DNA of 64,000 nucleotides from an uncultured Verrucomicrobiae bacterium (GTDB lineage: Bacteria; Verrucomicrobiota; Verrucomicrobiia; Chthoniobacterales; UBA10450). The notes under the pieces were generated by a model. That model was not told where the DNA came from and did no database searches. It worked only from the letters and a program-made list of their open reading frames with translations. The stretch spans positions 52,844-116,843 of the forward strand of contig CAWFYE010000002.1 of assembly GCA_963819975.1 (NCBI GenBank). The letters run 5' to 3'. Shown piece after piece: positions 3,248 through 64,000 of this stretch (within the stretch, counting starts at the first letter, position 1; every line of letters begins with the position of its first letter). The position numbers were made by a program, and so were the translations under genes.

Positions 3248-4425
3248 CGAGCGAAGCCGACGCCCTGGCCGCGGTCCTGGCAAAAATCACGCCTTTGCCG
3301 GGGCGAACCGTGGCGCTCTCCGAATCGTTAGGCCGATTTGCCGCGCAGGATTTGTTTGCCCAACGTGCGCTGCCGTCTTTCGACAATTCGGCCATGGATG
3401 GCTACGCCGTTCAAGCCGCCTCCTGCCAGGCAGGCGCGCGTTTGCGCATTGTGGGCGAGCAACCAGCCGGCGCCGATCGTGGCCTAACGATCGGAGCGGG
3501 TGAGGCGGTCCGCATTTTTACCGGCGCGCCGCTGCCCGCCGGAGCCGACGCCGTCGTCATGCAGGAGGACGTGGAACGCGAGGGGGAATCGATCGTGCTG
3601 GAGTCTGGCGTGGAACGCGGGGAATTTATCCGCCGCCGGGGTGCCGATCTGGCCGAAGGACAAAAAATTCTGGCCCGCGGTGAACCCATCGCCGTGCAAA
3701 CCATGGCGTTGCTCGCCTCGCAAGGGAGGGCGGAGATCGAGGTCGGCGGCGTCGCGCGCGTGGCGATCGTTTCCACCGGCGACGAGCTGGTCCCGGCCGG
3801 TGTGATCCCAGCGGCGGGGCAGATTTTCGAAAGCAATGCGCTCATGTTGCGTGCCCTCGCGCTTGGTTCCGGGGTTCACGTCTCCCTGGTCGAACATTGT
3901 CCGGACGATTTCCCGAAGATGACCGAACTTTTCCGCCGCGGGATGGAAGACGACGCGCTCATCGTGAGCGGCGGCGTTTCGGTCGGCGATCACGATTTAG
4001 TGAAACCGGCGCTGCGCGCGCTCGGGGCCGAGATCGATCTTTGGCGGGTTGCGATCAAACCGGGTAAGCCGTTTCTCTTTGGCCGGGCCAGCGATTGCTC
4101 GATTTTCGGGCTCCCGGGAAATCCGGTCTCGGCTTTTGTCACCTTTCTAAAATTTGTCCGGCCGGCGCTGCGAAAAATGAGCGGTGCCGCGGGCGAGCAC
4201 CTCGGCTTGCGCCAGGTTTCGGCGCGCCTCGCGACTGAGGTCAGGAACGACGGCGAGCGGCCGCATTATCTGCGTGGCGAGTTGCAAGGTGGCGTTTTCA
4301 ACGTCAACGGTCTGCAGGAGTCGCACGCACTGTTTGGTTTAAGCCGCGCCAACGCGCTGTTGCGCGTGGCAAGTGGCGAAAAATTTGCCGCTGGCGCAAT
4401 CGTTAGCGTCGAATTGTGGGACTGA
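3244..4425 (+). CDS. moeA: molybdopterin molybdenumtransferase
   Basis: FDNSAMDGYAV, VSTGDEL, GGVSVGDHD and PGNPVSAFVTF motifs. Confidence 0.9.
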   Translation: MTSEADALAAVLAKITPLPGRTVALSESLGRFAAQDLFAQRALPSFDNSAMDGYAVQAASCQAGARLRIVGEQPAGADRGLTIGAGEAVRIFTGAPLPAGADAVVMQEDVEREGESIVLESGVERGEFIRRRGADLAEGQKILARGEPIAVQTMALLASQGRAEIEVGGVARVAIVSTGDELVPAGVIPAAGQIFESNALMLRALALGSGVHVSLVEHCPDDFPKMTELFRRGMEDDALIVSGGVSVGDHDLVKPALRALGAEIDLWRVAIKPGKPFLFGRASDCSIFGLPGNPVSAFVTFLKFVRPALRKMSGAAGEHLGLRQVSARLATEVRNDGERPHYLRGELQGGVFNVNGLQESHALFGLSRANALLRVASGEKFAAGAIVSVELWD

Positions 4426-4598
4426 AGCCGGTTTTTTTCGCCTCCGGAAATTCCTGATTTCTTTTTAGGAGTCCGCCATACACGCAGGCGGCTGGCCCGC
4501 TTCGTTTCAAGTTTGCACGGCTAATTCAGATAAAGAATTTGCCTGCTGGGCTTGTCGTTAGGCAGTCCGAAAACACCCAAACAAAGGAAATCAAAAAT

Positions 4599-60279: not shown

Positions 60280-63200
60280 ATGAACGAACATTCCTGGCGG
60301 GAATTGGTGGGTGAAGAACGCACCGTGGGTTTCGATCAGGTCGCGATCGGGGTCGCTTCCAGCGACACGATGCGCTCCTGGAGCAAGGGCGAAGTTAAGA
60401 ATCCGGAGACGATCAACTACCGGACTTTCAAGCCGGAAAAAGGCGGCTTGTTCTGCGAGCGCATTTTCGGTCCGACCCGCGACTGGGAATGTTCCTGCGG
60501 AAAATACAAGCGGATCAAGCACAAGGGCGTGATCTGCGATCGTTGCGGCGTCGAGGTCACGCTCGCTCGCGTGCGGCGTGAGCGGATGGGCCACATCGAG
60601 CTCGCCGTCCCCGTTTCCCACATCTGGTTCTACAAATGCATGCCCTCGCGGCTCGGCCTCATGCTCGACATGAGCGCGCGTCAACTCGAGCGGGTCATTT
60701 ATTACGAGGACTACATCGTCATCGACCCGGGCAACACGCCCCTCACGAAATGCCAGCTCCTCACGGAAGTGGAATATCGCGAAGCGCAGGACCAGTACGG
60801 CGAAGAATTCAAAGCCGGCATGGGTGCCGACGCGGTCAAAGTGCTGCTCAGCGAAATCGAACTCTCAAAGTTGAACAAGGAACTCGAGGAAGCGATGGGC
60901 AACACGAAGAGCAAACAGATTCGCAAGAAACTCGCGAAGCGTTTGAAACTCGTGCAGGGCTTTGCGTCCTCGCATTCGCGCCCCGAATGGATGGTCCTCG
61001 AAGTGCTCCCGGTCATCCCGCCAGATCTGCGTCCGCTCGTCCCGCTGGAAGGCGGCCGCTTTGCGACCTCGGATTTAAACGATCTTTATCGTCGCGTCAT
61101 TAACCGCAACAATCGGTTGAAGAACCTGCTCCAGCTCAAAACGCCGGACGTCATCATCCGCAATGAAAAGCGCATGTTGCAGGAAGCGGTCGACGCGCTC
61201 TTCGATAACGGTCGCCACGGCCGCGCCGTCACAGGCGCCGGCAATCGCCCGCTCAAGTCGCTTAGCGACATGCTCAAGGGCAAGGGCGGACGTTTCCGTC
61301 AGAACTTGCTCGGTAAACGCGTCGATTACTCCGGCCGTTCCGTCATCGTCATTGGACCTGAGCTGAAGCTCAACCAGTGCGGTCTGCCGAAAAAAATGGC
61401 GCTCGTTTTGTTCGAGCCGTTCATCATTCGCCGCCTCAAGGATCTCGGTTACGTGCATACCGTGCGGAGTGCGAAAAAAATGATCGAGCGCCAGACGCCC
61501 GAAGTCTGGGACATCCTCGAGGAAGTGACCAAGGGACACCCGGTCCTCTTGAACCGCGCCCCGACCCTGCATCGTCTTTCGATTCAGGCTTTCGAGCCGC
61601 TCCTCATCGAAGGCGAAGCGATCCGCATTCATCCGCTCGTCTGCACCGCCTACAACGCGGACTTTGACGGCGACCAGATGGCGGTCCACGTGCCGCTCTC
61701 AGTCGAAGCGCAGATGGAGGCGCGCATGCTAATGCTCGCGCCAAACAACATCTTCTCGCCCTCGAGCGGCAAGCCGATCACGACTCCGTCGCAGGACATC
61801 ACGTTAGGCTGCTACTACCTGACGCAGAATCCGCGGCGCGCTGCGGGTGTGGCGGCGGAATCGCGTCTCCCACTTTTCGAGAACGCGACCGAAGTTGAGT
61901 TCGCGATGGCCGATGGCGCCGTGAAAACCCATGACCGCATTCGGCTGAAGAATCCCGATCTCGGCAAGGATACCATTTACGGCGACAAGGAGACCCACGT
62001 CATCGAAACGACTGCGGGTCGCGTCATCTTCAACGAGATCTGGCCTGATGGACTCGGCTTCTTCAACAAAGCCGCGGGCAAGAAACAGCTCAGCGACATC
62101 ATTTGGCGTTGCTATCAGGTCGCGGGCCAGGACGGCACAGTCGAAACACTCGACAAGCTGAAGGAACTCGGGTTCCGCGAAGCGACCAAGGCCGGCGTCT
62201 CGATCGGTATCTCGGACATGATCATTCCGAAGGAGAAAGAGCTCCAGCTCGCGAACGCCTACAAGCAGATCAAGACGGTCGAGCAGCAGTATCGCAAGGG
62301 CATCATCACCGACGGCGAGCGCTACAATAAGATCATCGACATCTGGACTCACGCTGGCGATGAAATCTCCAACGTCATGTTCCGCACCCTCGAGCATAAC
62401 GAGGGCCGCAAGGAACTGAACCCGGTCTTCCTCATGGTCGACTCCGGCGCGCGCGGTAACCGGCAGCAGGTCAAACAGCTCGCCGGTATGCGTGGTTTGA
62501 TGGCCAAGCCCTCGGGCGAGATCATCGAACGCCCGATTACCTCTAACTTCCGTGAAGGTCTGACCGTGCTGGAGTATTTCATCTCCACCCACGGCGCCCG
62601 CAAAGGTCTGGCCGACACCGCCCTCAAGACCGCCGACTCGGGTTACCTGACGAGAAAGCTGGTCGACGCGTCGCAGGACGTGATCATCAACGAAATGGAT
62701 TGCGGCACGGTCAACGGCATCACGGTCAAGTCGATCTACGAAGGCGACGAAGAAGTGGTCGATCTTTCGACCCGCATCGTCGGCCGCGTCAGTTGCGAAA
62801 CGGTCGTCGACCCGGTGACGAAGAAAAAAATCATCAAGGCCAACCAGATGATCGACGAGCCGACGGCGGCTGCGATTGAGAAAATCGGCGTCGAGAGCCT
62901 CAAGATTCGTTCCGTGCTCACCTGCGAAACTGGGCGCGGCGTTTGCGCGCATTGTTACGGCCGCAACCTCGCGACCGGACAGTTCGTCAAGCTCGGCGAA
63001 GCCGTCGGCATCATTGCGGCGCAGTCGATCGGTGAACCCGGCACGCAGTTGACGATGCGAACCTTCCACATCGGTGGAACGGCGAGCCAGACCTTCAAAC
63101 AGCCGATCATCAAGGCGAAGAACGATGGCCAGGTGCAGTTCAACGACCTGCGCACCGTGCAGTCGCTCGACGGCAACTGGATCGCCCTGAATAAGAACGG

Positions 63201-64000
63201 CTCCGTCTCGTTGCATAACGAAGAGGGCCGCGAAATCGAGCGCTACAACATCGTTATCGGCTCGGTCATTTCCGTGGCCGACGGCGGCAATGTGAAGAAG
63301 GGCGAAACCTTTGTGCAATGGGATCCCTACAACGTCCCGATTCTGACCGACAAGAGCGGCAAGATCGAATTCCGCGACATGATCGCGGGTGTGACGATGA
63401 AGCGCGAAGTCGACGAAGCGACTGGTCTCATGGGCACCGTCATTATCGAGCATAAGGAAGATCTCCACCCGCAAATCGTGATCGTGGGCGACGGAGGTGA
63501 AGTGGCCGCGAGCTATTCGATCCCGGCTGGCGCGCACGTCATCGTCGAGGCGAATCACAAGATTCGCGCCGGCGCCCTGCTCGCCAAGACGCCCCGAAAA
63601 GTGGCCAAGACCAAGGACATCACCGGCGGTCTGCCGCGGGTTGCGGAATTGTTCGAGGCGCGCCGTCCGAAAGACGCGGCCGAGATCGCGAAGATCGATG
63701 GCATCGTCGAAATCGGCGGCACCGTGCGTGGCAAACGGAAGCTCATCTTGAAGGACACCGAAACCGGCGCCGAAGAAGAGCATCTCATTCCGATGAACAA
63801 ACACATGATCGTCTTTAAGGGCGACTTCGTGAAGAAGGGCTCGCAGCTCACCGAAGGTCCGGTCGTTCCGCACGAAATTCTCGAGGTCTGCGGACCGCAG
63901 GATTTGCAGGAGCACCTCGTGAACGAAGTGCAGGAAGTTTATCGGCTCCAGGGTGTGGAGATTAACGACAAGCACATCGAGATAATCGTTAGGCAAATGC
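60280..64000 (+). CDS. rpoC: DNA-directed RNA polymerase subunit beta', N-terminal 1240 codons (3' end outside window)
   Basis: From the ATG at 60280: zinc finger [18 protein letters not shown], catalytic loop [16 protein letters not shown], and IEIIVRQM at the window end. It is not in the ORF track because no stop lies inside the window. Confidence 0.97.

Follow-up and report, generated by a model that had tools for sequence, protein, structure and literature searches.

Why should a single nine-base word recur about once every 2 kb through a stretch of unremarkable bacterial genes? The word is TCGTTAGGC (complement, GCCTAACGA), and the stretch, hereafter the window, is a 64-kb segment of contig CAWFYE010000002.1 from an uncultured Verrucomicrobiae bacterium, which carries ordinary housekeeping genes, including moeA, ligD, purA, purL, purF, pntAB, dnaX, rplA, rplJ, rplL, rpoB and rpoC. 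A first-pass annotation made from the letters had taken the word for a genome-wide signal and had named DNA uptake sequences, Chi sites and the FtsK-orienting KOPS as precedents. To answer the question, the copies on both strands were counted, and the expectation was taken from 100 dinucleotide-preserving shuffles and from Markov models of order 1-3. The window contained 32 exact copies, 22 on the plus strand and 10 on the minus strand, every one at the coordinate that the annotation had given. The shuffles yielded a mean of 0.32 copies and a maximum of 2, and the Markov models 0.3-0.5, so that the earlier estimate of less than one copy and of an excess far beyond tenfold was borne out by a 96-fold (~100-fold) excess over the first-order model. 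TCGTTAGGC was the most frequent 9-mer of the window, and the other top-ranked 8-10-mers under the order-3 model were all overlapping sub-words or extensions of it; the window holds one exceptional word family and nothing else comparable.

The near-copies were also in excess. The one-mismatch variants numbered 38, versus ~13 expected (3-fold enrichment), and among them were the seven copies of the 8-mer with a different 5′ base that had been listed before (A in 2, C in 3 and G in 2). The abundance of one-mismatch forms claimed by the annotation therefore stood, but its figure (7 plus about 20) was too low. The two-mismatch forms were depleted (0.62-fold), and we considered whether this might reflect a draining of such sites by a drive toward the word; the same depletion was found in genomes that lack TCGTTAGGC, hence it is compositional and the idea was discarded. 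The word thus stands ~100-fold above the Markov expectation, with copies that sit in no longer surrounding element, the two points on which the annotation had staked its claim. Its term genome-wide is narrowed here to this 64 kb and to the rpoB neighbourhoods of relatives, where the word does recur.

The relatives were drawn from a comparison set of 170 rpoB-neighbourhood loci (designated by L-numbers), and the orthologues of the rplA-rpoC region were aligned with the window. At the rpoB site, the window reads TCG TTA GGC, L001 reads TCG TTG GGC and L002 reads AGC CTC GGT; the word is exact in L082, L083 and L084, and it is one or two mismatches off in L081, L087 and L001. At the rpoC site, ATC GTT AGG CAA in the window corresponds to ATC GTG CGC CAG in the outgroups, and closer relatives show the stepwise intermediates GTC CGG and GTC AGG. 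At the stop codon of rplJ, the window has GCC TAA CGA, and the word-less relatives have GCT TAG GAA. At the copy sites the word-less relatives encode the same amino acids with other codons, and no indels were found at the orthologous word sites in the rplA-rpoC alignments. These alignments show copies in rpoB, in rpoC and at the rplJ stop codon that arose where they stand, through point substitutions that were synonymous or took several steps, and they show a directional process that assembles TCGTTAGGC by several substitutions while the protein sequence is kept. Since the orthologous sites differ by substitutions only, without indels, a mobile element is excluded, in agreement with the earlier reading, which had preferred a short signal word over a mobile repeat. 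In addition, some word sites were common to the clade, and others varied, with the full word in part of the genomes and a form one or two mismatches away in the rest, a mixture that points to turnover under a balance of mutation and drive.

We then asked how far the word extends among the relatives. In a search with RpoB, the closest matches among those listed were metagenome-assembled genomes of Chthoniobacterales (Verrucomicrobiota), the best one being 98% identical, which fits the Verrucomicrobia-like lineage that had been guessed from gene content. Five independent relatives whose RpoB is 95-98% identical (L082, L081, L083, L084 and L087) carried TCGTTAGGC, at 0.25-0.5 copies per kb. It was also present in near-identical strain copies, L085 and L086, which match L084, and L088 and L089, which match L087; in the 6.8-kb strain copy L086 its density was 0.15 per kb. 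These strain sets (L084/85/86 and L087/88/89) were tried for an analysis of gain and loss and set aside, because they are 99.6-99.99% identical and therefore too close. The word carriers are known only as metagenome assemblies, made by different projects with different assemblers, and an artefact is thereby ruled out. The lineages at 92-94% RpoB identity (L001, L091, L090, L002 and L092) had background counts of TCGTTAGGC, and neither relics nor an excess of decayed copies was detected in these five loci. Within the word-bearing clade, the variant TTGTTAGGC (GCCTAACAA) was found in 5 copies each in L081 and L082, versus ~0.05 expected, and it makes the context of the rpoB stop codon in four genomes (in the window, GCC TAA CAA at 60241-60249). 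This variant may be a dialect of TCGTTAGGC.

The sister lineage L002/L092 (RpoB 92% identical, ~55% GC) carried its own dispersed word, about AAGATCGACAAT (in L002, e.g., at 4533, 7396, 12559, 17055 and 18945), which is unrelated to TCGTTAGGC. L002 had 9 copies of AGATCGACAA versus 0.06 expected, and L092 had 4 copies; the core GATCGACA was present 20 times in the 22.5 kb of L002. This second word also occurred in both orientations, often directly after TAA or TAG stops, and it was made in place in rpoC. L092 holds, in addition, 2 exact copies of TCGTTAGGC in 23.8 kb (<0.2 expected), which may be due to chance or may be the trace of an exchange between lineages. No other free-standing word of comparable kind was found among the 170 rpoB-neighbourhood loci. 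A candidate third word in L090 (TCATCAGCCAGA) proved to be a protein-domain repeat with a 147-nt period, and the high-scoring 9-mers of the unrelated loci L167, L147 and L024 were not free-standing, since they belonged, respectively, to a CRISPR-like array (6316-6590, 66-nt period), to clustered octamer arrays (repeats of AATCGGGTA/AATTGCGG at 445-4300) and to a Lys-Gly-Lys coding motif.

The genomic context of the 32 copies in the window was as follows (gene coordinates in parentheses, with a minus sign for genes on the minus strand):

3325..3333, plus strand: copy in moeA (3244-4425), sense, Ser-Leu-Gly
3482..3490, minus strand: copy in moeA, antisense; the sense strand reads GCCTAACGA as x-Leu-Thr
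4555..4563, plus strand: copy in the DUF892 gene (4539-5138), sense, Val-Arg frame
5132..5140, plus strand: copy forming the TAG stop of the DUF892 gene (CGT TAG); a hairpin terminator lies downstream at 5162-5192, with the word outside it
6924..6932, minus strand: copy forming the TAA stop of ligD (5187-6929), GCC TAA CGA
8293..8301, plus strand: copy in an amidohydrolase gene (7887-9266, -), antisense, Pro-Asn-Glu/Asp frame
9685..9693, plus strand: copy in a squalene/phytoene synthase gene (9273-10337, -), antisense, Pro-Asn-Asp/Glu frame
10058..10066, plus strand: copy in the same squalene/phytoene synthase gene, antisense, Leu-Thr frame
11022..11030, plus strand: copy in a DUF362 gene (10214-11347, -), antisense
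11104..11112, minus strand: copy in the same DUF362 gene, sense, Val-Arg frame; 82 nt from the copy at 11022 and inverted relative to it
15936..15944, minus strand: copy in bacA/uppP (15490-16356, -), sense, Val-Arg frame
16889..16897, plus strand: copy in a GDP-mannose dehydratase gene (16768-17754, -), antisense
19728..19736, minus strand: copy forming the TAA stop of the open reading frame (ORF) 19251-19733
20926..20934, minus strand: copy forming the TAA stop of pntA (19795-20931)
24497..24505, plus strand: copy in a class-III aminotransferase gene (24181-25599, -), antisense
27680..27688, plus strand: copy in a large He_PIG-domain gene (25653-29402, -), antisense
29405..29413, plus strand: intergenic copy, 3 nt upstream of the start of gene 25653-29402 (-)
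31274..31282, plus strand: copy in purL (30253-32256), sense, Val-Arg frame
31598..31606, plus strand: copy in purL, sense, Val-Arg frame
33624..33632, plus strand: copy in a purF-like amidotransferase gene (33252-34517), sense, Ser-Leu-Gly
35237..35245, plus strand: intergenic copy, 7 nt downstream of the stop of ORF 35252-35542 (-)
40080..40088, minus strand: intergenic copy, 7 nt upstream of a deaminase gene (40095-40532)
41270..41278, minus strand: copy forming the TAA stop of a PEP-CTERM protein gene (40604-41275)
42421..42429, plus strand: copy in a TPR protein gene (41346-42566, -), antisense
44238..44246, plus strand: copy in a peptidase S58 gene (44069-45250, -), antisense
46325..46333, plus strand: copy in dnaX (45389-47062), sense, Ser-Leu-Gly
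50083..50091, minus strand: copy in an M23 peptidase gene (49244-50308), antisense, Pro-Asn-Glu/Asp frame
50981..50989, plus strand: copy in a metallophosphoesterase gene (50314-51079, frameshifted), sense
51183..51191, plus strand: intergenic copy, between 51079 and 51455
55622..55630, minus strand: copy forming the TAA stop of rplJ (55094-55627)
60184..60192, plus strand: copy in rpoB (56422-60246), Ser-Leu-Gly
63986..63994, plus strand: copy in rpoC

As shown in this list, 28 copies were genic and 4 intergenic, and the intergenic share (12.5%) was close to the non-coding share of the window, whose coding density is ~90%. The genic copies lay on the sense strand in 12 cases and on the antisense strand in 16, and all six reading frames were used, so that the use of all frames, gene ends and spacers described in the first-pass annotation was recovered. 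The stop-containing frames (CGT TAG and GCC TAA CGA) occurred solely at gene ends, and the word closes six genes. There are 23 TAA stops in the window; 5 of them lay inside the exact word and three more inside forms with one or two mismatches. The zones within ~14 nt of stop codons, which cover 2.5% of the window, contained 7/32 copies; the corresponding test (p = 9e-7) was computed with 8 copies, as it included the rpoC copy at the window edge, which has no stop codon. The word also left its mark on codon choice, because 10/46 TTA codons were inside its 8-base core CGTTAGGC and 6/47 AGG codons inside the full TCGTTAGGC, in a genome whose GC content at third codon positions is ~0.73. Hence, TCGTTAGGC works against codon usage by bringing in rare codons, and it explains why TTA and AGG codons, and TAA stops with a CGA after them, are locally in excess.

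Several other features of these genes were recorded. Three genes are split by frameshifts, namely purL (30253-32543, near 32215), the metallophosphoesterase gene (50314-51079, between 50540 and 50604) and that of a DcuC-family carrier (42690-44040, minus strand), which is spread over two ORFs that overlap. Either the long-read assembly contains indel errors at these points or the genes are true pseudogenes. The first purL fragment ends at an out-of-frame TAG, which comes from the near-word TCGTTAGGG at 32250. The gene at 29605-30141 (minus strand) and purL (plus strand) diverge from a spacer with two inverted heptamer arrays (30127-30167 and 30205-30233), each of about five tandem CAACGTY or complementary RACGTTG units, which could make a long hairpin or an operator-like element. 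Finally, the DUF892-ligD block lies ~50 kb upstream of rpoB in the window and a few kb downstream of rpoC in L001 and L002 (window 4632-6916 compared with L001 20345-22590 and L002 19074-20695), a local rearrangement between close lineages.

In order to define the word itself, its flanks, its tolerance to change and its spacing were analyzed. TCGTTAGGC has nine bases and, as read from the sequence, is not its own reverse complement. No flank consensus was found in the oriented alignment of the 32 window copies, and when the window and the five relatives were pooled (76 copies) there were only weak preferences, for a base other than C at -2, for G at -1 and for a purine at +2/+3, each of at most 0.27 bit; to within these preferences, the absence of an extended consensus noted before holds. 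Among the near-copies, G3 and T4 were essentially invariant (0 and 1 variants) and A6 rarely varied, and positions 1, 2, 7, 8 and 9 tolerated change, the favoured variants being TTGTTAGGC and TCGTTATGC. The change of C2 to T was common and that of G3 to A was never seen. There were no tandem copies in the window, the closest inverted pair was 82 nt apart and formed no hairpin, and no copy lay in a predicted terminator stem in scans of window positions 1-60000. The copies are spaced somewhat more regularly than by chance: the gaps had a coefficient of variation of 0.74 versus 0.96 at random (p ~0.05), and the largest gap was 4.8 kb, where random placement gave 7.8 kb on average (p = 0.017). A strong bidirectional terminator-like hairpin was located at 5162-5192, between the DUF892 gene and ligD; it has a 13-bp stem with 10 GC pairs, holds GCGATCGC-type palindromes and lies 24 nt after a word copy, which is itself outside. 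The palindrome CGCGATCGCG was mildly over-represented in the window (12 versus 2.6 expected).

The orientation of the copies bears on which of the named precedents could apply. The plus strand of the window has a positive GC skew almost throughout and carries rpoBC, therefore it is probably the leading strand. The 22:10 ratio of the window gave p = 0.05 against equal use of both strands; it was compatible with a 75% skew and incompatible with a 90% skew (p = 8e-4). When the five relatives were added, the ratio was 44:33, with p = 0.25 against 50:50 and p = 8e-4 against 75%, although these sites are partly orthologous and not fully independent. KOPS-like polarity is thus rejected. Chi-like behaviour is disfavoured, by the pooled ratio and by the size of the excess, though the 22:10 of the window alone would still fit it; among the three precedents named by the first-pass annotation, the data favour the uptake type.

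We propose, with confidence that is evenly balanced, that TCGTTAGGC is a lineage-specific, uptake-sequence-like word of a Chthoniobacterales clade, maintained by molecular drive. The proposal is based on the excess, on the free-standing nature of the word, on its origin in place against codon bias, on a clade distribution with variants, and on the different word of the sister lineage. According to this model, a surface DNA-binding component, by analogy a competence pilus or a minor-pilin receptor, would prefer DNA that carries TCGTTAGGC, with G3, T4 and A6 as the critical positions for recognition. Word-bearing fragments from relatives would then be imported and recombined more often than word-less alleles, and because of this, mutations toward TCGTTAGGC would be over-transmitted. 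The word would accumulate wherever protein function permits, i.e., in synonymous or conservative codons in all four open frames, at stop codons with unconstrained neighbours in the two TAG/TAA frames, and in spacers. DNA uptake, competence genes and a receptor are putative attributes of the clade. In soil population genomics, ComEC-containing loci have been linked to high recombination in abundant soil bacteria (PMC7305173), which makes competence in such lineages plausible but unproven. Our literature search found no report of TCGTTAGGC as a genomic motif, the best-ranked string matches being primers, oligonucleotides and unrelated sequences, and none of uptake sequences or competence in Verrucomicrobia or Udaeobacter, in line with the earlier statement that no such word had been described for a Verrucomicrobia-like lineage.

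Several observations weigh against this proposal. The role of the word in uptake is one that we infer, and the 64-kb window contains no competence, pilus or DNA-receptor genes. Uptake sequences have been described only in Neisseriaceae and Pasteurellaceae, according to a 2025 preprint (10.1101/2025.10.24.684340), and with only two proteobacterial families known to have them the prior for a third is modest. Unlike the DNA uptake sequences of Neisseria, the copies are not paired as inverted repeats in the window. The 22:10 ratio toward the strand of positive GC skew is compatible with a Chi-like skew of 75%. Furthermore, the words of the sister lineages are entirely unrelated rather than dialects that differ by one to three bases, a change more abrupt than any described for known uptake sequences.

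A more radical reading, to which we give a lesser but real chance, would fit this last point: TCGTTAGGC could be the footprint of an undescribed word-directed conversion or self-marking system, and not an uptake signal. For instance, a repair or defence component that reads an asymmetric 9-mer would bias repair toward the word, and its specificity module would have been swapped among the sisters, leaving TCGTTAGGC, AAGATCGACAAT or none. A separate rival, modelled on the cyanobacterial highly iterated palindrome HIP1, would have a methyltransferase-linked or mismatch-specific endonuclease correct near-cognate sites toward the word by very-short-patch-type repair, independently of uptake. HIP1 likewise combines a very high excess with an origin by substitution in place, and modification systems change their specificity modules rapidly, a trait that would suit the unrelated sister words. 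However, TCGTTAGGC is not palindromic, nine contiguous specified bases are unusual for a methyltransferase site, the near-copies show no symmetric signature of CpG deamination (C2 to T is common, G3 to A is never seen), and no methyltransferase or Vsr-like gene is present in the 64-kb window; we consider this rival unlikely. A Chi-like signal seems to us a shade more doubtful. Here, a helicase-nuclease of the RecBCD/AddAB type would read the word as a mark of self, halt degradation and load RecA, and selection for the repair of broken forks would keep the word frequent. Chi sites are short non-palindromic words that, as is generally known, differ between bacterial groups, and the 22:10 bias toward the positive-GC-skew strand, present in genes of both orientations (10+9 vs 7+2), would agree with such a role. 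Nevertheless, the ~96-fold excess contrasts with the ~6.7-fold excess of Chi in Escherichia coli (PMC1939737), nine bases exceed the 5-8 of known Chi sites, the pooled 44:33 ratio, which includes partly orthologous sites, differs from 0.75, and lineages whose RpoB is 92-95% identical have replaced the word entirely, much faster than Chi is known to evolve. The 64-kb window contains no RecBCD/AddAB genes.

The remaining two explanations carry little weight. A word of chromosome architecture, read by a nucleoid protein or directing translocases in the manner of KOPS, the SpoIIIE recognition sequences (SRS), matS or Noc sites, would be dispersed and short, and both the mild strand excess in the window and the fairly even spacing would suit it. 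Yet a 90% skew was rejected, one copy per 2 kb and an ~100-fold excess are far above the known KOPS/SRS words, and the word is missing from close sister lineages, which still must segregate their chromosomes; we regard this explanation as very improbable. That the copies are remnants of a mobile repeat, such as a miniature inverted-repeat transposable element (MITE) or a repetitive extragenic palindrome (REP), or else an artefact of assembly or sequencing, is a practically negligible possibility. The frameshifted genes of the window do suggest an error-prone assembly, but the copies lack conserved flanks and indels at orthologous sites, they keep reading frames and protein sequence, and the same word is found in independent assemblies.

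If the uptake-like reading is true, TCGTTAGGC would represent a third, independently evolved uptake sequence system, the first outside Proteobacteria, and an uncultured lineage of the soil Verrucomicrobia, a group described as globally abundant in soil (PMC7305173), would be expected to combine natural competence with self-recognition. Sister lineages with this word, with another word or with none would then offer a natural comparison, which could locate the receptor by comparative genomics. If the mechanism is not uptake, a new kind of genome-wide sequence drive would be at work. TCGTTAGGC also has practical value for these genomes, as a tag that can help in binning and in recognising foreign DNA.

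How does TCGTTAGGC compare with the systems already known? In published counts (PMC1939737), the Pasteurellaceae uptake sequence occurs 438 times versus 3 expected, with 947 one-mismatch forms versus 86, E. coli Chi 1008 times versus 151, and HIP1 5648 times versus 5. With an exact excess of ~96-fold and a one-mismatch excess of 3-fold, the profile of TCGTTAGGC is like that of the Pasteurellaceae uptake sequence and unlike that of Chi. The likeness to this uptake signal sequence (USS; 9-base cores of the AAGTGCGGT and ACAAGCGGT types) extends to a non-palindromic word of nine bases at ~1 copy per 1-2 kb, over-representation by some two orders of magnitude that is weaker for one-mismatch forms, mostly genic copies accommodated through codon choice, both orientations, a bias toward gene termini (PMC2346458), clade-level variants, and a few dominant positions among tolerant ones. 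The USS differs in its unrelated sequence, in the phylum of its hosts and in AT-rich flanking tracts, which were not detected for TCGTTAGGC, where there is a weak purine preference at +2/+3; the embedding in stop codons is prominent for TCGTTAGGC and sets it apart. Moreover, uptake bias and competence have been demonstrated for the USS and are putative for TCGTTAGGC.

The DNA uptake sequence (DUS) of Neisseriaceae (GCCGTCTGAA and its dialects, with the minor pilin ComP as receptor) is present in thousands of copies per genome. It resembles TCGTTAGGC in being a short word with genus-level dialects, permissive positions and a weakly conserved extension beside the core. In contrast, DUS copies often form inverted pairs that act as terminators, whereas the closest inverted pair of TCGTTAGGC is 82 nt apart and no copy within positions 1-60000 is in a predicted terminator stem; and 1-3 bases separate one DUS dialect from another, but the sister of the TCGTTAGGC clade has a wholly unrelated word.

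Among the other systems, Chi (GCTGGTGG in E. coli, with species-specific variants elsewhere) shares with TCGTTAGGC the non-palindromic, species-specific character and, possibly, the strand excess in the window; it differs in its 5-8 bases, its ~6-7-fold excess and its strong replication-linked orientation, against 9 bases, a ~96-fold excess and a pooled skew that is weak or absent for TCGTTAGGC. HIP1 (GCGATCGC) is alike in its extreme excess, its free-standing copies made in place in genes, its lineage-specific variants and its unproven function, but HIP1 and its variants are palindromes tied to orphan methyltransferases, which the variants track (PMC4390886), and TCGTTAGGC is asymmetric. The KOPS and SRS octamers, which orient FtsK and SpoIIIE, are also dispersed, short and asymmetric, but their skews exceed ~85-90%, their density is far lower and their over-representation modest, and the 90% skew was rejected for TCGTTAGGC. 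MITE and REP elements have a longer conserved unit, often a hairpin, and are present or absent as insertions, none of which applies to TCGTTAGGC. The word departs from DUS and USS in four ways, i.e., phylum, sequence, the lack of terminator pairing and the unrelated sister words. At the level of sequence, it shares with them its size (9-12 nt in that class), density and excess, its free-standing origin in place against codon bias, its use of every frame that proteins permit, its fairly even spacing, its mismatch profile, and its distribution across a clade with dialects.

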